Part shown: piece by piece, positions 5,931-25,890 of the stretch
Layout: each line of letters begins with the position of its first letter
Position numbering within the stretch: the first letter of the stretch is position 1
From: a virus
Lineage: Duplodnaviria; Heunggongvirae; Uroviricota; Caudoviricetes
IMG/VR virus record: IMGVR_UViG_2541047895_000011
Direction: 5' to 3' (one strand)
Length of the DNA: 32,441 bases
Translations under genes and position numbers: made by a program
The notes under the pieces: generated by a model
Databases searched by the model: none
Seen by the model: the letters and a program-made list of their open reading frames with translations, nothing else
Told to the model about the DNA's origin: nothing

Positions 5931-6977
5931 ATGGCGGTAAAAGTTGTTGATCTTTTTTGCGGTGCTGGCGGTTTAACGCACGGCTTACATTTGGCCGGAT
6001 TGGACGTTGTCGCAGGCATTGATTTAGAAGGTGAGTGTCGTGTTGCATACGAAAGCAATAATGATGCACTTTTTATTGAAAAAGATATATCTCTGGTGAC
6101 AAAAGATGAAATCGAAAATCTTTTTGAAGGGGCAAGTGTTAAAGTATTGGCCGGATGTGCACCTTGTCAGCCATTTTCTAAATATACTCAGGGAAAAGAT
6201 AAAAAAAATGATAAAAAGTGGCCGTTATTATATGAGTTTGAACGTTTAATAAAAGACACGAAACCAGAAATAGTTACAATGGAAAACGTTCCTGATGTGA
6301 CAAAACATTCTGTCTATGATGATTTTTATAATACCTTAATAGCATTGGGTTATTATGTTTGGGCAAATAAGATTGAATGTGTAGATTTTGAGGTTCCGCA
6401 AAACAGAGTGAGGCATGTATTACTCGCATCTAAATTTGCGCCGATTTCTCTGATGAAACCACAAACATCGGTAAAGCTGACAGTTAGGGATTGCATTGGT
6501 AATTTACCTTCGATTGAAGCGGGACAAGCAGATCCAAAAGACCCTCTCCATAAGGCGAGTAGATTGAGTGAAATTAATCTCAAACGTATTCTACATTCAA
6601 AACCGGGGGGGACATGGAGGGATTGGCCTGCTGAATTAATCGCTTCATGTCATGCCAAGAAAAGTGGGCAGGGATATGCCAGTGTTTATGGTCGTATGTC
6701 TTGGGATAAACCGAGTCCAACGATAACTACACTTTGTTATGGTTTTGGTAATGGACGTTTTGGTCATCCCGAGCAGCATCGTGCAATCTCACTTAGGGAA
6801 GCAGCATTACTTCAAACGTTTCCTGTTACATATTCATTTACCCAACCGGGCGAGCCGATCAAAATGAAAAATGTCGGGCGTATGATAGGTAATGCTGTTC
6901 CTGTAAACTTAGGTAAAGCGATTGGTCTTTCAATAGTACATCATTTGAAAGAGTTTCACCCCGCCGCTCTTAAATAA
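5931..6977 (+). CDS. DNA (cytosine-5)-methyltransferase, Dcm family
   Basis: 348 aa with motif I (DLFCGAGG), catalytic PCQ motif IV (GCAPCQPFS), ENV motif VI (MENVPDV), QNRVR motif VIII and a C-terminal GNAVPV motif; GGAG Shine-Dalgarno 6 nt upstream of the ATG; AT-rich compared with the phage backbone. Confidence 0.9.
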   Translation: MAVKVVDLFCGAGGLTHGLHLAGLDVVAGIDLEGECRVAYESNNDALFIEKDISLVTKDEIENLFEGASVKVLAGCAPCQPFSKYTQGKDKKNDKKWPLLYEFERLIKDTKPEIVTMENVPDVTKHSVYDDFYNTLIALGYYVWANKIECVDFEVPQNRVRHVLLASKFAPISLMKPQTSVKLTVRDCIGNLPSIEAGQADPKDPLHKASRLSEINLKRILHSKPGGTWRDWPAELIASCHAKKSGQGYASVYGRMSWDKPSPTITTLCYGFGNGRFGHPEQHRAISLREAALLQTFPVTYSFTQPGEPIKMKNVGRMIGNAVPVNLGKAIGLSIVHHLKEFHPAALK

Positions 6978-7675
6978 GCCTGAGTATCAAGATAAGTTTG
7001 TATATTTTCAAGGATGCAGTTGAGATAATGAAAAACTTCATCCTTCATTTCTGTTAGTGTATCAATAGATGTATCTCTGCCTTTGTTTCTAAATGATTCA
7101 GAACCATGAGCAAGGTCGTTTCTGGCCTTTTTTATTGGAAGTAAATTGCAACCATTTCGCGTTATTTCTGAATCTGTATCTGCTGAGAAGCCATATTTTT
7201 CAGCGACTTCTCTAATTTTTCTAGCATCAACATTTCCAGAAAATAACGGATTTTTATTTGATTGGATAAGTTTTTTGTGAGCGTTTAGCCACTCTTTAAA
7301 TATAACTTTTGCAATGTTCCCTTGTGAGAAATCTATTTTCCCATTTGGTGATTGTAAACTATGAAATGCTACTCTTGTAAGGTTTTCATTTACAGTGTCT
7401 GCACATAATGATTCATTAGACATTAAAACATTATGAATGTCTTCTATTGCATTGGAAATGGTTGCTTCAATGAGATTGTACAATATAATAAATGCATTAG
7501 CCTTTAAAATATGAGTCATGTCAATATCAATGGGTTGTTGTATAGGCGCATCGCTTGTATTCTCTTTATAGACTAGAGATGGTTTTTTGTTTATTAGTAA
7601 CTGAATGAATGAGAAGTATTCATTAATATCTTGCATTCTTTCTTGGAAAAGAATTTTACTTGTCATCTCCTCCAT
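6956..7675 (-). CDS. HEPN-like protein (candidate Rx4H motif, RNDLAHG), putative RNase effector
   Basis: 239-aa ORF, second gene of the leftward operon, 10 nt downstream of the DUF262 gene; near the C-terminus, KKARNDLAHGSESF fits the HEPN Rx4-6H signature; AT-rich. Domain call is by eye and not profile-verified. Confidence 0.55.
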   Translation of the reverse strand: MEEMTSKILFQERMQDINEYFSFIQLLINKKPSLVYKENTSDAPIQQPIDIDMTHILKANAFIILYNLIEATISNAIEDIHNVLMSNESLCADTVNENLTRVAFHSLQSPNGKIDFSQGNIAKVIFKEWLNAHKKLIQSNKNPLFSGNVDARKIREVAEKYGFSADTDSEITRNGCNLLPIKKARNDLAHGSESFRNKGRDTSIDTLTEMKDEVFHYLNCILENIQTYLDTQAYLRAAG

Positions 7676-7685
7676 TTACTTGGCC

Positions 7686-8831
7686 TCACTCCATATTTTC
7701 ATCTTCATTTTCATCTTCGTCGACAATATTTTCTGGAATGTCTTTCCCAAGCAACTTGTTTTTTACATATTCAATGCGTGCTTTAACTTTGGGTTTAGAG
7801 TTGCTGGCATCTGAACGTGTGTGCGTGATAAACTCTTTCGAGTTGATCCAGTCATCAATATTTTTAGGAACTAAATTGGGTTCTTCCTCTAGTGCTAATG
7901 TTGCACCGACGGCAAGAGCTTCGAAACGAATCCTAGGAACAGTGGTGGCGTTTTTCACCTTTCTGAAACCATTTGGGAAATGTGTATTAATGAATTGGCA
8001 CATTTTATGAAATTTTTCCGCCAGCATAGCTGCGTTTTCATCTGTATATTCGGCATTTTTACGTTTTAAATAGGTTGTAAGAAATTCATCAACGCTTTTT
8101 CTGAAATCAAGATATTCTTCAGTGTAGGCAAAGTAGCGTAGTGCCAATTCTGGATATTCAGAGCGACGTTTTCTTGCATCTCCCAAAGGACAGATGCTAT
8201 GAAATAGAGGATCTTCGGAAATTTCATTGATAAATGCAAGGAATGGCCCATCATGGCTACCTTGCCGTTGTTCCATTGTTGTTAGTTTTTTTCCGCCAGT
8301 ATTCAGACGGTCAAAAATTTCCCTTCTTGTCTCTTCGTCACAATGTTCTGTAAGTTCAATCATTCGAATAGTTTTTCTATCAAAACGTAGGCGACGGGGA
8401 GTACTGAAATCAGAATATTTAAAACCATTGGCTGTGACTAATTTCTGCAGGCCTTCAAGAGTTAGTTTGTTATTGGTAAATTGGTGTAGGGTTCTTATTC
8501 GTTGGCTACCGTCAACAATTTCAAGTCTACCTTCATTTTCACCTGAACCAATATCGGCAACGAATATGTAAGGTATAGGAAGATTTAAAAGCAGAGATTC
8601 AATGAAACGGGATTTTTGCTTGTTGTTCCAGATAAACTCCCTTTGGTAGTCAGGTATAAAAAGCTCTGCCTCATCTTCTTCAAGACCATTCTGAAATTTG
8701 TCCACAATAACACTTATCGGGAACTCACGTATTTCATGGTCAGTGATTTTTTGCATTTCAACTATGCTTTGATCTAAAAGCTCCTTTTCTTCTTTAGTTT
8801 TTGGGGTATGTTCTGCTTTTTTTCTCGCCAT
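7686..8831 (-). CDS. DUF262 / ParB-like (GmrSD N-terminal-type) protein with acidic C-terminal tail
   Basis: 381 aa; N-terminal region has the DUF262 hallmarks (IPDYQREFIW followed by EIVDGSQRIRTL, a DGQQR-type motif); no recognisable DUF1524/HNH module; C-terminus is DEDENEDENME; first gene of the leftward operon starting near cos. Confidence 0.75.
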   Translation of the reverse strand: MARKKAEHTPKTKEEKELLDQSIVEMQKITDHEIREFPISVIVDKFQNGLEEDEAELFIPDYQREFIWNNKQKSRFIESLLLNLPIPYIFVADIGSGENEGRLEIVDGSQRIRTLHQFTNNKLTLEGLQKLVTANGFKYSDFSTPRRLRFDRKTIRMIELTEHCDEETRREIFDRLNTGGKKLTTMEQRQGSHDGPFLAFINEISEDPLFHSICPLGDARKRRSEYPELALRYFAYTEEYLDFRKSVDEFLTTYLKRKNAEYTDENAAMLAEKFHKMCQFINTHFPNGFRKVKNATTVPRIRFEALAVGATLALEEEPNLVPKNIDDWINSKEFITHTRSDASNSKPKVKARIEYVKNKLLGKDIPENIVDEDENEDENME

Positions 8832-19389: not shown

Positions 19390-20298
19390 ATGCCGATTAT
19401 CGACCTGAACCAGCTACCCGCACCGGATGTGGTCGAAGAGCTGGACTTTGAAACCATTCTTGCCGAACGCAAGGCGACACTGATTTCCCTTTACCCGGAA
19501 GACCAGCAGGAGGCGGTCGCCCGTACCCTGACGCTGGAATCCGAGCCTCTCGTCAAACTGCTGGAGGAAAATGCTTATCGTGAGCTTATCTGGCGTCAGC
19601 GTGTGAATGAGGCCGCACGGGCGGTGATGCTGGCCTGTGCTGCCGGTAATGACCTTGATGTGATTGGTGCCAATTACAACACCACGCGCCTGACTATCAC
19701 CCCGGCAGATGATTCGACCCTCCCGCCGACACCGGCAGTGATGGAGTCTGACACCGATTATCGTCTGCGTATTCAGCAGGCGTTTGAAGGTTTAAGCGTC
19801 GCCGGGTCGGTGGGTGCCTATCAGTATCATGGTCGAAGTGCCGACGGGCGTGTCGCGGATATCTCTGTCACCAGTCCGTCTCCGGCCTGCGTCACCATCT
19901 CTGTGCTGTCACGTGAAAATAACGGTGTTGCATCCGAAGACCTGCTGGCCGTGGTGCGTAACGCCCTTAATGGCGAGGACGTCAGGCCGGTGGCCGACCG
20001 CGTGACCGTACAGTCTGCCGCCATTGTTGAATACCAGATAAACGCCACGCTTTACCTTTACCCAGGCCCCGAAAGCGAACCCATCCGCGCTGCCGCCGTG
20101 AAAAAACTGGAAGCGTATATCACGGCACAGCACCGGCTGGGGCGCGACATCCGTCTGTCTGCCATTTATGCCGCTTTGCATGTGGAAGGTGTGCAGCGTG
20201 TCGAACTGGCTGCACCGCTGGCCGATATCGTGCTTAACAGCACGCAGGCGTCTTTCTGTACCGAATACCGCGTCGTGACCGGAGGCTCGGATGAGTGA
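19390..20298 (+). CDS. J: Baseplate protein, P2 gpJ-like
   Basis: 302 aa; position and size of P2 J. Confidence 0.85.
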   Translation: MPIIDLNQLPAPDVVEELDFETILAERKATLISLYPEDQQEAVARTLTLESEPLVKLLEENAYRELIWRQRVNEAARAVMLACAAGNDLDVIGANYNTTRLTITPADDSTLPPTPAVMESDTDYRLRIQQAFEGLSVAGSVGAYQYHGRSADGRVADISVTSPSPACVTISVLSRENNGVASEDLLAVVRNALNGEDVRPVADRVTVQSAAIVEYQINATLYLYPGPESEPIRAAAVKKLEAYITAQHRLGRDIRLSAIYAALHVEGVQRVELAAPLADIVLNSTQASFCTEYRVVTGGSDE

Positions 20299-20821
20299 TT
20301 CGCGACTGCTGCCGACCGGCTCATCACCGCTTGAGGTAGCCGCCGCAAAAGCCTGTGCGGAAATTGAAAAAACACCGGTCAGTATTCGTGAGCTGTGGAA
20401 CCCGGACACCTGCCCGGCAAATCTGCTGCCGTGGCTGGCGTGGGCGTTTTCGGTCGACAGATGGGATGAAAAGTGGCCGGAAGCGACAAAACGCGCCGTT
20501 ATCCGCGATGCGTATTTCATCCACTGTCATAAAGGCACTATAGGTGCAATCCGGCGTGTGGTGGAGCCGCTCGGCTATCTCATCAACGTGACGGAGTGGT
20601 GGGAAAACAGTGACCCGCCCGGCACCTTCCGGCTTGATATTGGTGTACTGGAAAGTGGCATCACAGAGGCAATGTATCAGGAAATGGAACGGCTGATTGC
20701 TGATGCCAAACCTGCAAGCCGTCACCTTATTGGCCTGAACATTACCCGGGACATTCCCGGCTACCTGTTCGCCGGTGGTGTGGCTTACGACGGCGATGTA
20801 ATTACGGTTTACCCCGGATAA
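20291..20821 (+). CDS. I: Baseplate protein, P2 gpI-like
   Basis: 176 aa; overlaps the J stop; position and size of P2 I. Confidence 0.85.
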   Translation: MSDSRLLPTGSSPLEVAAAKACAEIEKTPVSIRELWNPDTCPANLLPWLAWAFSVDRWDEKWPEATKRAVIRDAYFIHCHKGTIGAIRRVVEPLGYLINVTEWWENSDPPGTFRLDIGVLESGITEAMYQEMERLIADAKPASRHLIGLNITRDIPGYLFAGGVAYDGDVITVYPG

Positions 20822-20831
20822 GTGAGGAATA

Positions 20832-23024
20832 ATGAGCACAAAATTCAGAACCGTTATCACCACTGCCGGTGCAGCAAAGCTGGCAGCGGCAACCGCACCG
20901 GGAGGGCGGAAGGTCAACATTACCACGATGGCCGTCGGGGATGGCGGTGGTAAATTGCCTGTCCCGGATGCCGGACAGACCGGGCTTATCCACGAAGTCT
21001 GGCGACATGCGCTGAACAAAATCAGTCAGGACAAACGAAACAGTAATTATATTATCGCAGAGCTGGTTATTCCGCCGGAGGTGGGCGGTTTCTGGATGCG
21101 TGAGCTTGGCCTGTACGATGATGCGGGAACGCTAATTGCCGTGGCAAACATGGCCGAAAGTTATAAACCAGCTCTTGCCGAAGGCTCAGGGCGTTCGCAG
21201 ACCTGCCGCATGGTCATCATCGTCAGCAGTGTGGCCTCAGTGGCGTTGACTATTGACACCACAACGGTGATGGCGACGCAGGATTACGTTGATGACAAAA
21301 TTGCAGAGCACGAACAGTCACGACGTCACCCGGACGCTTCGCTGACCGCAAAAGGTTTTACTCAGTTAAGCAGCGCGACCAACAGCACGTCTGAAACACT
21401 GGCCGCAACGCCGAAAGCGGTAAAGGCCGCATATGACCTTGCTAACGGGAAATATACTGCACAGGATGCCACTACAGCGCGAAAAGGTCTTGTCCAGCTC
21501 AGTAGTGCCACCAACAGCACGTCTGAAACGCTCGCCGCAACACCAAAAGCGGTTAAGGCAGCGTATGACCTTGCTAACGGGAAATACACTGCACAGGACG
21601 CCACCACAGCGCGAAAAGGCCTTGTCCAGCTCAGTAGCGCCACCAACAGCGATTCTGAAACGCTTGCGGCAACGCCAAAGGCGGTAAAAGCAGCATATGA
21701 CCTTGCTAACGGGAAATATACCGCACAGGACGCCACCACAGCGCGAAAAGGCCTTGTCCAGCTCAGTAGCGCCACCAACAGCGATTCTGAAACGCTTGCA
21801 GCAACGCCAAAGGCGGTTAAGACAGCGTATGACCTTGCTAACGGGAAATACACTGCGCAGGATGCCACCACGGCACGGAAAGGCCTTGTCCAGCTCAGTA
21901 GCGCCACCAACAGCGATTCTGAAACGCTTGCAGCAACGCCAAAGGCGGTTAAGACAGCGTATGACCTTGCTAACGGGAAATACACTGCGCAGGATGCCAC
22001 CACGGCACGGAAAGGCCTTGTCCAGCTCAGTAGCGCCACCAACAGTGATTCTGAAACGCTGGCCGCAACACCAAAAGCAGTGAAGTCTGCCTATGACAAT
22101 GCTGAAAAACGTCTTCAGAAAGATCAGAACGGTGCGGATATTCCGGGAAAGGATACCTTCACGAAAAATATCGGTGCCTGTCGTGCTTATAGCGGCGCTT
22201 TGAGCACTGAAGCCGGAAACTGGACAACCGCTCAGTTTATTGAATGGCTGGATTCCCGTGGTGCATTTAATCATCCGTACTGGATGTGCAAATGTTCATG
22301 GTCATACGGCAATAATAAAATTATTACCGATACTGGCTGTGGAACTATTCATCTTGCAGGTTGCGTTATTGAGGTTATGGGTAATAAAGGTGCCATGACC
22401 ATCCGTGTAACAACACCAAGCACTTCCACCGGAGGCGGCACCACTAACGCTCAATTCACTTATATTAATCATGGTGATGCTTATGCCCCCGGCTGGCGAC
22501 GAGACTACAACACGAAAAACCAGCAGCCTGCATTTGCTTTAGGGCAAACAGGAAGCAGGGTTGCAAATGATAAAGCTGTTGGCTGGAACTGGAATAGCGG
22601 TGTTTATGATGCAGATATCAGCGGTGCATCGACATTAATCCTCCACTTCAATATGAATGCGGGGAGTTGCCCTGCCGTACAGTTCCGTGTGAATTATAAG
22701 AACGGCGGTATTTTTTATCGTTCAGCACGTGATGGTTATGGATTTGAGGCTGACTGGTCAGAGTTTTACACCACAACCCGCAAACCCTCTGCGGGAGATG
22801 TTGGTGCATATACCAAAGCTGAATCGGATTCTCGCTATGTACGAGATATTCGCCTGGGCACACGTGTTGTTCAGACTATGCAAAAAGGTGTGATGTATGA
22901 AAAATCAGGCCATGTAATTACAGGGCTTGGTATTGTCGGTGAAGTCGATGGTGATGACCCCGCAGTATTCAGACCAATACAAAAATACATCAATGGCACA
23001 TGGTATAACGTCGTACAGGTGTAA
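20832..23024 (+). CDS. H: Tail fibre protein, P2 gpH-like, with an internal tandem repeat array and an AT-rich C-terminal domain
   Basis: 730 aa; P2-like N-terminal part, then six in-frame 44-aa repeats, then a Cys-containing C-terminal domain of lower GC. Confidence 0.9.
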   Translation: MSTKFRTVITTAGAAKLAAATAPGGRKVNITTMAVGDGGGKLPVPDAGQTGLIHEVWRHALNKISQDKRNSNYIIAELVIPPEVGGFWMRELGLYDDAGTLIAVANMAESYKPALAEGSGRSQTCRMVIIVSSVASVALTIDTTTVMATQDYVDDKIAEHEQSRRHPDASLTAKGFTQLSSATNSTSETLAATPKAVKAAYDLANGKYTAQDATTARKGLVQLSSATNSTSETLAATPKAVKAAYDLANGKYTAQDATTARKGLVQLSSATNSDSETLAATPKAVKAAYDLANGKYTAQDATTARKGLVQLSSATNSDSETLAATPKAVKTAYDLANGKYTAQDATTARKGLVQLSSATNSDSETLAATPKAVKTAYDLANGKYTAQDATTARKGLVQLSSATNSDSETLAATPKAVKSAYDNAEKRLQKDQNGADIPGKDTFTKNIGACRAYSGALSTEAGNWTTAQFIEWLDSRGAFNHPYWMCKCSWSYGNNKIITDTGCGTIHLAGCVIEVMGNKGAMTIRVTTPSTSTGGGTTNAQFTYINHGDAYAPGWRRDYNTKNQQPAFALGQTGSRVANDKAVGWNWNSGVYDADISGASTLILHFNMNAGSCPAVQFRVNYKNGGIFYRSARDGYGFEADWSEFYTTTRKPSAGDVGAYTKAESDSRYVRDIRLGTRVVQTMQKGVMYEKSGHVITGLGIVGEVDGDDPAVFRPIQKYINGTWYNVVQV
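21352..22098. repeat. Six tandem copies of a 132-bp (44-codon) unit inside H, the phage tail-fibre repeat
   Basis: The motif ACCAACAGC recurs at 21378, 21510, 21642, 21774, 21906 and 22038, exactly 132 bp apart; units 4 and 5 appear identical; the encoded unit is GLVQLSSATNS(T/D)SETLAATPKAVK(A/T)AYDLANGKYTAQDATTARK. Confidence 0.9.
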
Positions 23025-23027
23025 TTT

Positions 23028-23555
23028 ATGCAGCATTTAAAAAATATTACTGCGGGTAATCCCAAAACTATTGCCCAATATCAACTGACAAAAAATTTTG
23101 ATGTTATCTGGTTATGGTCTGAAGACGGAAAAAACTGGTATGAGGAAGTAAGTAATTTTCAGGAAGACACGATAAAGATTGTTTACGACGAGAATAATAT
23201 AATTGTCGGCATCACCAGAGATGCTTCAACGCTTAACCCTGAAGGTTTTAGCGTTGTCGAGGTTCCTGATATTACCGCCAACCGACGTGCGGATGACTCA
23301 GGTAAATGGATGTTTAAGGATGGTGCCGTGATTAAGCGGATTTATACGACAGACGAACAGCAGCAACTGGCAGAATCACAAAAGGCAACTTTACTTTCCG
23401 AAGCTGAATCCGTGATTTTGCCGCTGGAGCGCGCTGTCAGGCTGAATATGGCAACAGATGAGGAACGCAGCCGACTGGAAGCATGGGAACGCTACAGCGT
23501 TCTGGTCAGCCGTGTGGATCCTGCAAATCCTGAATGGCCGGAAATGCCGCAATAA
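23028..23555 (+). CDS. G: Tail fibre assembly chaperone, P2 gpG-like
   Basis: 175 aa immediately after H; size and position of P2 G. Confidence 0.85.
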
Positions 23556-23776
23556 GTTGTATAAGCTCTGGTGTGAGATTACATATCTATGGCACAGAGT
23601 AAAGCCTAATCTGACAGGCCGCTCTGTGTCTGGAGTAGATTTTAGTAAAGCATTATTTCATTAGTGCAAATTCTAAACAATACATTTTATGTATATGATA
23701 TCCTGCGGACTTTAATGACTTGGTTTAGGCTAACCAGATAACACTGAAGGAATATTTTTGATAATTAAGGTGCGGT

Positions 23777-24370
23777 ATGTTTACTAAGCGACGATTAAAA
23801 AATATTAACTGGGAGGCAAGTTCAGTGATTCTTGCTATGGTTCTCTTTGTTGGAAATATATTTTATACAAATCATCGTGATGATATAAGCATGGAGGCTG
23901 AGAGAGACAGTATCAGAACAATGTTTGCATATGAAATCGCTAATAACCATCGCGCTCTCACTTTTCTTGATAAAACGAGAAATATTGGCTTTGACGAAAA
24001 TTCGGAGCATTTTGTTGGCGAGCCTTTTGCCATTAATGTCGAATCATTAGGAGGGCCTCGCTTACAGATTGCATTAAACCAGACTGATAAAGTTTTTAAA
24101 GCCTACTTCAGTGAATTAAGTAAACTTGATAAAGAGGATGTTACTCTTCTTATGGACTATTACCATGAGCAAAGCATCCTGCTGGAGTGTGTAAAATCTA
24201 CGTTAGAGAAGATGAAAAGCAATAATGATATTAAAGTTGATATTGATGGTTACTTATTAGAAGAACACTTCATGAATGAGTTTAATCTTTCTAATATTTT
24301 GCTTAAACGCTATAGCCATTTGTTGTCACAACACCTCAAAAAACCTGAAACAAAAGATTTACATAATTGA
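23777..24370 (+). CDS. Hypothetical membrane-anchored protein at the P2 Z/fun cargo position
   Basis: 197-aa ORF in an AT-rich island between G and FI; N-terminal hydrophobic segment (SSVILAMVLFVGNIFY); a terminator hairpin follows downstream; no motif I recognise. Confidence 0.6.
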   Translation: MFTKRRLKNINWEASSVILAMVLFVGNIFYTNHRDDISMEAERDSIRTMFAYEIANNHRALTFLDKTRNIGFDENSEHFVGEPFAINVESLGGPRLQIALNQTDKVFKAYFSELSKLDKEDVTLLMDYYHEQSILLECVKSTLEKMKSNNDIKVDIDGYLLEEHFMNEFNLSNILLKRYSHLLSQHLKKPETKDLHN

Positions 24371-24577
24371 TGATCTGCTAATGGTTATTCATGGGATAAC
24401 TATGTTTTATATGTAATCCAACTCAGATGAATTATTGATTCTGGATAATAACCGCAGAGCGGCATATACCCTGACAGGCAAATGTCCGCTTCTTGCTCAA
24501 AGCAGACTGTCAGATTTGATAACTTTTGGGTTATGTAAATTGTCAGTCGGAAAATGAGTGTGTGCAAATCAGGACAG

Positions 24578-24600
24578 GCGGGCGAATTGCCCGCTTTTTC
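24578..24600 (+). terminator. Rho-independent terminator downstream of the Z/fun-position ORF
   Basis: Hairpin GCGGGC-GAATT-GCCCGC followed by TTTTTCTTT. Confidence 0.65.
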
Positions 24601-24699
24601 TTTATCTGTTGTTTCATCCCCTGACCAGCCAGCTCAAATAGCGTCTCATGCTTTGCACAACAGAAAATAGTTGCACCCATTAACCACGGAGTTAAACGG

Positions 24700-25890
24700 A
24701 TGAGTGACTATCATCACGGCGTGCAGGTGCTGGAGATTAACGACGGCACCCGCGTCATTTCCACCGTATCCACCGCCATTGTCGGCATGGTCTGCACGGC
24801 CAGCGATGCGGATGCGGAAACCTTCCCCCTCAATAAACCGGTGCTGATTACCAATGTGCAGAGCGCAATTGCAAAGGCCGGTAAAAAAGGCACGCTGGCG
24901 GCATCGTTGCAGGCCATCGCCGACCAGTCAAAACCGGTCACCGTTGTCGTGCGTGTGGAAGACGGCACCGGCGACGACGAGGAAGCGAAACTCGCGCAGA
25001 CCGTTTCCAATATCATCGGCACCACTGACGAAAACGGTCAGTACACCGGACTGAAAGCCCTGATGGGGGCTGAGTCGGTTACCGGCGTTAAACCGCGCAT
25101 TCTTGGTGTGCCGGGGCTGGACACCAAAGAGGTTGCCGTCGCACTGGCATCGGTATGCCAGGAACTGAATGCATTCGGGTATATCAGCGCATGGGGCTGT
25201 AAAACCATTTCCGAGGTGAAAGCCTACCGCCAGAATTTCAGCCAGCGTGAGCTGATGGTTATCTGGCCGGATTTCCTCGCATGGGATACGGTCACCAGTA
25301 CCACCGCCACCGCGTATGCCACCGCCCGTGCGCTGGGGCTGCGCGCTAAAATCGACCAGGAGCAGGGCTGGCATAAAACGCTGTCCAACGTCGGGGTAAA
25401 CGGTGTTACCGGCATCAGTGCATCTGTATTCTGGGATTTGCAGAAGTCTGGCACTGATGCTGACCTGCTGAACGAGGCAGGCGTCACAACGCTGGTTCGC
25501 CGCGACGGTTTCCGTTTCTGGGGTAACCGTACCTGCTCCGATGACCCACTGTTCCTCTTTGAAAGCTACACACGCACTGCGCAGGTACTGGCCGACACGA
25601 TGGCTGAGGCGCACATGTGGGCTATTGATAAGCCCATCACCGCAACGCTGATTCGCGACATCATTGACGGCATCAATGCCAAATTCCGCGAACTGAAAAA
25701 CAACGGTTATATCGTGGATGGCACATGCTGGTTCAGTGAAGAATCCAACGATGCGGAAACCCTCAAGGCCGGAAAACTGTATATCGACTACGACTATACA
25801 CCGGTGCCTCCTCTCGAAAACCTGACCCTGCGCCAGCGTATTACTTCCAGATACCTGGCAAGTCTGGTCACCTCGGTTAACAGCAATTAA
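24700..25890 (+). CDS. FI: Tail sheath protein, P2 gpFI-like
   Basis: 396 aa; size and position of P2 FI. Confidence 0.9.
   Translation: MSDYHHGVQVLEINDGTRVISTVSTAIVGMVCTASDADAETFPLNKPVLITNVQSAIAKAGKKGTLAASLQAIADQSKPVTVVVRVEDGTGDDEEAKLAQTVSNIIGTTDENGQYTGLKALMGAESVTGVKPRILGVPGLDTKEVAVALASVCQELNAFGYISAWGCKTISEVKAYRQNFSQRELMVIWPDFLAWDTVTSTTATAYATARALGLRAKIDQEQGWHKTLSNVGVNGVTGISASVFWDLQKSGTDADLLNEAGVTTLVRRDGFRFWGNRTCSDDPLFLFESYTRTAQVLADTMAEAHMWAIDKPITATLIRDIIDGINAKFRELKNNGYIVDGTCWFSEESNDAETLKAGKLYIDYDYTPVPPLENLTLRQRITSRYLASLVTSVNSN

Follow-up and report, generated by a model that had tools for sequence, protein, structure and literature searches.

How a 132-bp unit comes to be repeated within the reading frame of a tail-fiber gene, and how two neighboring units come to be identical letter for letter, is the question raised by gene H of a P2-like Escherichia coli prophage. 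The prophage was taken from IMG/VR virus record IMGVR_UViG_2541047895_000011, a stretch of 32,441 nucleotides (nt) that was analyzed whole and is referred to here as the window, with positions counted from its first letter. The repeats had been picked out in an earlier reading made from the letters of the window (the sequence-only reading). They probably represent the shaft-repeat array of H in a complete P2-like E. coli prophage, in which the fifth unit derives from a very recent duplication of a single unit.

H is modular, with a conserved N-terminal attachment domain followed by an array of the Pfam repeat PF03406 and then by an exchangeable receptor-binding module. The exchangeable module in this prophage is one similar to S' of phage Mu, served by a tail-fiber assembly chaperone, G, similar to Mu U.

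Structure of the repeat array

Tandem Repeats Finder reported a period of 132 nt with 5.5 copies at 21372-22097 (91% matches, no indels, score 1102), and a separate repeat search found six copies in register at intervals of exactly 132 nt. The in-frame register begins at codon 174, which is nt 21351, and every unit stays in frame, 132 being 3 x 44. The array occupies 21351-22098 and consists of five full units followed by a truncated sixth, in the arrangement listed below.

20832-23024, plus strand: tail-fiber gene H, a 730-amino-acid (aa) open reading frame (ORF) with PF12571 and six PF03406 matches; exact public match WP_021560123.1 / EQW98465.1
21351-21482, plus strand: unit 1 (u1), 132 nt / 44 aa
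21483-21614, plus strand: u2, 132 nt / 44 aa
21615-21746, plus strand: u3, 132 nt / 44 aa
21747-21878, plus strand: u4, identical to u5
21879-22010, plus strand: u5, identical to u4
22011-22098, plus strand: truncated u6 (KGLVQLSSATNSDSETLAATPKAVKSAYD...), in which identity at an offset of 132 nt fades at about 22098, approximately 29 codons in

The sequence-only reading had described six in-frame repeats of 132 bp. Its count is upheld by the six matches, while its start is corrected from 21352 to 21351 and its sixth unit proves to be truncated. PF03406 (Phage_fiber_2, "phage tail fibre repeat") matches six stretches of H, each over model positions of about 1-41, with a total of 394.3 bits and an E value of 6e-121; the curated gathering cutoff of the family is 22 bits, and both the score and the repeated matches of approximately 42 residues agree with membership. 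The array is not a chance similarity, because outside it no 40-mer occurs twice in the 32-kb window. It is a real feature, correctly described and of an already known kind, and the protein already stands in RefSeq.

As had been noticed from the letters, u4 and u5 are the same at the nucleotide level, all 132 nt being shared. At an offset of 132 nt, the exact match runs for 167 nt from 21747, which yields a perfect tandem stretch of 299 bp (21747-22045). A phase-variable contingency locus, in which the unit would shift a frame or the spacing of a promoter, does not fit this array, as 132 nt is a multiple of 3, and alleles with 1-7 units all remain in frame.

A search of PDB sequences with 2.9 repeat units gave the Mu S and S/S' chains as the sole matches. 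PBP5 entries also appeared in that search, at E values of approximately 0.2-0.8, and were set aside as noise. A Pfam TPR_20 hit on H (28 bits, with no single stretch passing) was likewise rejected as spurious and due to the Ala-rich repeat.

Origin of the fifth unit

When 132 nt are taken out of the window H, the result is exactly the 2061-nt H of E. coli 2015C-4136CT1 (NZ_CP027550), a five-unit allele that is restored by any of 168 equivalent cut positions (starts 21747-21914). With this unit removed, a global alignment of the two 32.3-kb sequences leaves two differences, both 1-bp indels, at 6605 and 26993. The recent duplication that the sequence-only reading had deduced from the identical pair is borne out by this comparison. 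As for the two indels, the first falls in a methyltransferase gene and the second in the tape-measure gene; both genes are intact in the window and annotated as frameshifted in the 2015C-4136CT1 record, where the indels may be long-read homopolymer errors.

At the duplication boundaries, the five-unit allele possesses a 35-nt perfect direct repeat with 132-nt spacing (gene positions 916-950 and 1048-1082), and this tract is the only place where a misaligned exchange in the five-unit allele gives precisely the window allele. Its copies in the window are as follows.

21747-21781, plus strand: 35-nt perfect tract, recurring at 21879-21913 and 22011-22045

The exact run at an offset of 132 nt is 35 nt in the five-unit allele vs. 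167 nt in the window. A boundary repeat of this kind is what unequal homologous recombination between neighboring units, or replication slippage, would be expected to leave. The origin of u5 would then lie in one very recent event of either type in a five-unit ancestor, where an exchange between the 35-nt perfect tracts 132 nt apart would add one in-frame unit, or 44 aa per chain. The 167-nt perfect overlap between u4 and u5 would in turn be expected to make further gain or loss of units more frequent than it was in the ancestor.

Several points weigh against a recent gain of u5 and the role proposed for it. The source of the window is a draft assembly, in which a perfect tandem stretch of 299 bp may be miscounted from short reads. 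The six-unit allele was found in 0 of 5,426 complete E. coli genomes, where the best match was the five-unit allele. Two sequences do not suffice to tell whether the last event was a gain in this prophage or a loss on the side of the five-unit allele. The effects of unit number on shaft extension and host range are ones that we infer. Finally, an AlphaFold2 monomer of H, built with an alignment of 20 close homologues, was of low confidence (mean predicted local distance difference test score, pLDDT, 35.8; predicted template modeling score, pTM, 0.25) and was discarded as unusable for the fold of the repeat and the length that each unit adds.

The doubt about the assembly leads to a rather unlikely alternative, in which the sixth unit is an artefact, the source strain having five units of which an identical one was placed twice. 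The window equals a scaffold of the draft GCA_000460375.1, and its H gene is identical to the copy in that assembly (KE701708.1). The extra unit is the sole substantive difference from the closed genome over 32.3 kb, and it sits in the perfect stretch of 299 bp. The exact protein was recorded on 1 contig, as against 89 for the five-unit allele, and its absence from the complete genomes points the same way. On the other hand, assemblers in our experience are more apt to collapse than to expand a perfect tandem repeat, and the UniRef100 name for the exact 730-aa protein gives n=4 E. coli entries. Identical or near-identical neighboring units also occur in independent data (loci L084, L039, L075, and L109), and the duplication is in frame and lies exactly at the 35-nt perfect tract, as it would after real recombination.

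The doubt about direction leads to another course of events, unlikely while still a live option, in which the six-unit allele is ancestral and the five-unit allele arose by deletion of one identical unit, that is, by the same mechanism reversed. A deletion should occur more readily between the 167-nt overlaps than a duplication between 35-nt tracts, and short-read under-counting of identical units may inflate the frequency of the five-unit allele. Against such a deletion stands the far wider spread of the five-unit allele on record (89 contigs vs. 1). Moreover, the identical pair requires a recent duplication whichever direction the last event took, since all other pairs of units have a synonymous divergence (dS) of at least 0.44. 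The recent duplication of one unit, with its net gain in this prophage, remains the reading that we prefer.

Age and constraint of the units

The first three units provide the background against which the identity of u4 and u5 can be judged.

21351-21746, plus strand: units 1-3, with mutual differences of 14-22 nt, nearly all synonymous (dS 0.44-0.74; non-synonymous divergence, dN, 0.03-0.07)

Among units 1-5, codon differences are synonymous in 117 cases vs. non-synonymous in 20, and pairwise values range from 0.44 to 1.16 for dS and from 0.01 to 0.08 for dN, the u4/u5 pair excepted; with 44 codons in each unit, these estimates are noisy. Because the differences are mainly synonymous, units 1-4 appear to be old copies whose peptide has been under strong constraint.

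A wider sample of 97 other arrays, drawn from IMG/VR and GTDB species representatives, contained 155 adjacent pairs of full units. One of these pairs was identical and two had a 1-nt difference, the typical distance being 10-23 nt. Because only 1/155 adjacent pairs is identical, the state seen in u4 and u5 would be a rare and young one.

Homogenization offers a different account of this pair. Both u4 and u5 would be old and would have been made identical by gene conversion (concerted evolution), with copy number unchanged. Variants are shared in a patchy way by units of different alleles, which suggests that units have exchanged sequence to some extent. However, the prophage that is identical in all else lacks exactly one unit and has no chimeric one, so that a conversion would have to be followed by a precise deletion; a single duplication is the more parsimonious course, and this account is very improbable.

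Unit number among relatives

Variation in unit number was observed among E. coli genes of H that share one receptor-binding module, as listed below.

2 units: E. coli RM9872, H of 554 aa, same Mu S'-like module
4 units: E. coli RM12761 and phages vB_EcoM-12474, H of 642 aa, same Mu S'-like module
5 units: E. coli 2015C-4136CT1, H of 686 aa, same Mu S'-like module
6 units: the window, H of 730 aa, Mu S'-like module
7 units: E. coli 3-373-03_S4_C3, H of 774 aa, same Mu S'-like module

The array is accordingly not fixed at six units between strains, 2, 4, 5, 6, and 7 units being found with one receptor-binding domain, in keeping with the variable array that the sequence-only reading had supposed. 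The two extreme alleles are informative about how such variation may arise. In the two-unit allele, the second unit is chimeric, of the u2 type in its 5' part and of the last-unit type in its 3' part, as a deletion by unequal crossover would leave it. In the seven-unit allele (locus L109, 1501-3825, a draft), units 2-4 are identical and of the u2 type, unit 5 is off by 1 nt, and the exact run at an offset of 132 nt reaches 387 nt; this looks like an independent and larger expansion of another unit. The count of seven units, coming from a draft assembly, is equally exposed to assembly error.

The 80 IMG/VR loci nearest in the N-terminal domain include 75 in which H is complete, and of these 75 genes, 7 have two units, 2 have three, 53 have four, and 13 have five. 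The 22 GTDB species representatives from other Enterobacterales have 1-4 units, and deposited phage genomes have at most 4, as judged from the match span on record. In the complete genome of strain OSUCMP42NDM, an H of 863 aa has six units, all of them diverged. A single-unit search of 1.84 billion representative proteins retrieved fibers in which 11-12 units are closely similar, with more distant units numbering up to 17; the proteins P0122-P0124 (7, 11, and 12 units) are not of the P2 H type. Six units lie at the upper end for P2-type H and are unremarkable for the repeat family. The literature on P2 gpH repeats, PF03406, and fiber copy number was also searched, and no paper documenting copy-number polymorphism of the array in P2-like prophages was found.

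The proteins P0122-P0125 have 6-12 units of the PF03406 repeat (Pf2) in a higher-order repeat, in which the unit of 44 residues alternates with a variant of 59 residues that contains "APSSHTHPWNQITGVPTASLTAKG". The N-termini of P0123 and P0124 are non-P2, that of P0125 is divergent and leads into an H-type linker, and P0122 begins within the array.

Receptor-binding module and chaperone

Downstream of the array, the gene changes in character, and its C-terminal part belongs with the chaperone gene that follows.

22095-23021, plus strand: C-terminal receptor-binding module, aa 422-730, resembling Mu S' (G(-) fiber)
23028-23555, plus strand: tail-fiber assembly chaperone G (Caudo_TAP, PF02413; E value 1e-34), close to Mu U

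Residues 422-727 of H match PDB 8ju3_A (Mu S') with an E value of 2.5e-150. The similarity to Mu S' is very close over aa 422-662, while the last approximately 65 residues are closer to Mu S (5yvq_A, 663-728), and a weak match to PF12604 (gp37_C) lies near the C-terminus. Chaperone G matches Mu U (5yvq_B) over all 175 aa with an E value of 1.9e-101. Homology to Mu S' (8ju3) and Mu U suggests that H may form a trimeric fiber and bind the host receptor via its C-terminus.

The alignment with Mu S/S' starts inside u6, and where the array ends the G+C content steps down from about 55% to 47% and then to 39%. Because the Mu S'-like match starts there and the G+C content drops in this manner, the last repeat unit appears to be the seam between the conserved P2 part of the gene and an imported receptor-binding module. 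The whole segment 22095-23555 looks like an imported host-recognition module that is itself mosaic.

This exchange bears on the size of the protein. The sequence-only reading had set the 730 aa of this H beside 669 aa for P2 H as a possible sign of expansion. The length given for P2 H was correct (2010 nt), but the difference of 61 aa is no measure of expansion, because this H has another C-terminal module, which is shorter. Relative to P2 H, the array is longer by 176 aa (4 x 44) and the C-terminal module is shorter by approximately 120 aa. The expansion itself stands on unit number, with six units here vs. two in P2.

Comparison with known tail-fiber systems

The closest known system is that of P2 gpH (AAD03286.1, 669 aa) with gpG, which shares with the window the J-I-H-G order, the N-terminal domain, and the Pf2 repeat; its unit 1 has 6 nt differences from u1 of the window. 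Unlike the window H, P2 gpH has two units instead of six, followed by an unrelated C-terminal receptor-binding module that is about 120 aa longer. Between P2 and the window, the junction of the common part with the module lies inside the last repeat unit.

The PF03406 repeat was first noted in the side tail fiber Stf of lambda and is common in prophage fibers (PMC3368898). Other fibers of this family, including side fibers of the lambda type, have the same motif of approximately 42 residues, in tandem arrays of up to 12 similar units, and nothing essential separates them from the present array. In P0122-P0125 the units alternate with the 59-residue variant, whereas the window has a plain 44-residue period.

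In phage Mu, receptor-binding modules are switched by inversion of the G segment (PMC11915804). The Mu S/S' and U proteins (5YVQ, 8JU3) resemble the present ones in that one Pf2 unit lies directly upstream of the variable part of Mu S, the C-terminal module of the window H strongly resembles S', and G has a close match in U. The window differs from Mu in showing variation in unit number rather than in module choice. An invertible switch of the Mu G or P1 C type was not recognized, as no inverted repeat longer than 22 nt is present in 20800-24700, and neither an invertase, nor an inverted second module, nor a large inverted repeat was found at the H locus.

A further parallel is offered by T4. 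By its title, a 1996 paper of Tetart et al. (J Mol Biol 258:726) reportedly describes duplications in the T4 gp37 adhesin that expand host range; it is cited in PMC3157838 together with a 1998 paper of Tetart et al. (J Mol Biol 282:543). Recombination at conserved fiber motifs is a classical theme in T-even fibers, and so is a change of host range through duplication in frame. T4 gp37 is similar to the present case in the tandem in-frame duplication of a tail-fiber gene via recombination between short conserved motifs. It is different in that the gp37 duplications concern the receptor-binding tip, while the unit in the window belongs to the shaft, upstream of the receptor-binding module.

Fiber length and host range

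From what is generally known of trimeric phage fibers, each unit would be expected to add a fixed length to the trimeric shaft and to leave the receptor-binding tip untouched, in which case the number of units would set the reach of the fiber and not its specificity. An effect of unit number on fiber length, and possibly on host range, is plausible. That fiber length should matter for a receptor in the lipopolysaccharide core beneath O-antigen or capsule is speculative.

A stronger proposal treats the array as an adaptive length-tuning locus, in which reach is matched to the depth of O-antigen or capsule and unit number is a determinant of host range. One receptor-binding domain occurs with 2, 4, 5, 6, and 7 units, recent expansions have taken place independently in several lineages, and the unit peptide is under strong purifying selection. 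Most arrays, however, are old and stable, with neighbors typically 10-23 nt apart; neutral unequal recombination in a length-tolerant structure explains the variation equally well; and there is no invertase, reverse transcriptase, or large inverted repeat nearby. Length tuning has a slim chance of being correct. The related idea that the Pf2 array is a rapidly evolving "ruler" of tail-fiber reach, in which unequal recombination would keep producing variants that differ in shaft length and share one receptor-binding tip, with O-antigen or capsule depth selecting the length that lasts, is similarly doubtful. If it were true, the one-unit difference between otherwise identical 32-kb prophages would be a snapshot of the ruler process, and unit number would be a host-range determinant overlooked by receptor-binding-protein typing.

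The locus does not reveal a new kind of system, and its practical value is modest. Two prophages that are otherwise identical differ here by one unit of a tail-fiber shaft, which makes them a clean natural case of such a change. The finding that anything from 2 to 7 shaft units is tolerated with one and the same receptor-binding module can be of use for engineering fibers of the P2 or R-pyocin type and for prophage receptor-binding-protein typing. A further lesson is that the number of units in such an array is not to be relied on when it comes from a short-read assembly.

Antisense and off-frame reading frames

Long ORFs run over the array on the opposite strand, and the sequence-only reading had regarded them as artefacts of the repeat.

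21362-22042, minus strand: antisense ORF of 226 aa with a periodic translation
21366-22274, minus strand: antisense ORF of 302 aa with a periodic translation

Two off-frame ORFs on the plus strand over the array are also periodic translations of the unit. Two minus frames have just 1-2 stops over the whole array, and substitutions between units cause 13 aa changes in the H frame vs. 27-99 in the other five frames. The minus-strand ORFs are by-products of stop-free repeat frames and not genes, in agreement with the earlier interpretation. That they encode real antisense proteins has next to no probability: the ORFs of 226 and 302 aa do exist, but they are periodic copies of the unit in stop-free frames, the substitutions that are silent in the H frame are not silent elsewhere, and the strong Pfam matches over the array belong to the plus frame.

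Prophage setting and neighboring genes

The whole window is a P2-like prophage that extends from the integrase gene through ogr and is followed by fieF. Its integration site, cpxP | fieF, is the same as that of the prophage of E. coli 2015C-4136CT1 (NZ_CP027550), a near-identical element annotated with a full P2-like gene set. The features upstream of the array are the following.

19390-20298: Baseplate_J (Pfam)
20291-20821: Tail_P2_I (Pfam)
20832-21284, plus strand: N-terminal baseplate-attachment domain PF12571 of H, aa 1-151, Pfam E value 2.9e-58

Between the PF12571 domain and the array, which starts at 21351, lies a short conserved linker. The domain is 99-100% identical across the 80 IMG/VR loci, and the 5' part of H has approximately 90% DNA identity to P2 H. 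The J-I-H-G order in a P2-like late operon, as in P2-type H (Peduoviridae), and the tail-collar fiber domain PF12571 at the N-terminus together identify the gene, with confidence on homology grounds, as a P2-type tail-fiber gene H.

The only ORF between G and the late gene at 24700, which is the tail-sheath gene in the near-identical 2015C prophage, is an orphan with no Pfam match and a weak PADLOC hit (PDC-M46A, E value 0.005).

23777-24370, plus strand: orphan ORF of 197 aa, approximately 35% G+C, between G and the late gene at 24700

We take its position to be that of P2 Z/fun, a known cargo hotspot. In relatives the same spot is filled by other cargo, namely, SMEK-domain proteins and a protein of the LPO_1073/Vpar_1526 family. 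The AT-rich ORF of the window is bracketed by an imperfect inverted repeat of 19 nt (23608-23626 / 24498-24516; 84% complementary), which may either mark the edges of a cargo insertion or be due to chance.

Another cargo block, at 5931-8831, occupies the other P2 hotspot and is probably a defense module; it holds three genes.

5931-6977, plus strand: C5 cytosine DNA methyltransferase (PF00145), best PADLOC matches DrmMII and MTase_II
6956-7675, minus strand: HEPN_MAE_28990 protein
7686-8831, minus strand: GmrSD_N/DUF262 protein, PADLOC NsnA (5e-55) and PD-T4-2_A (9e-35)

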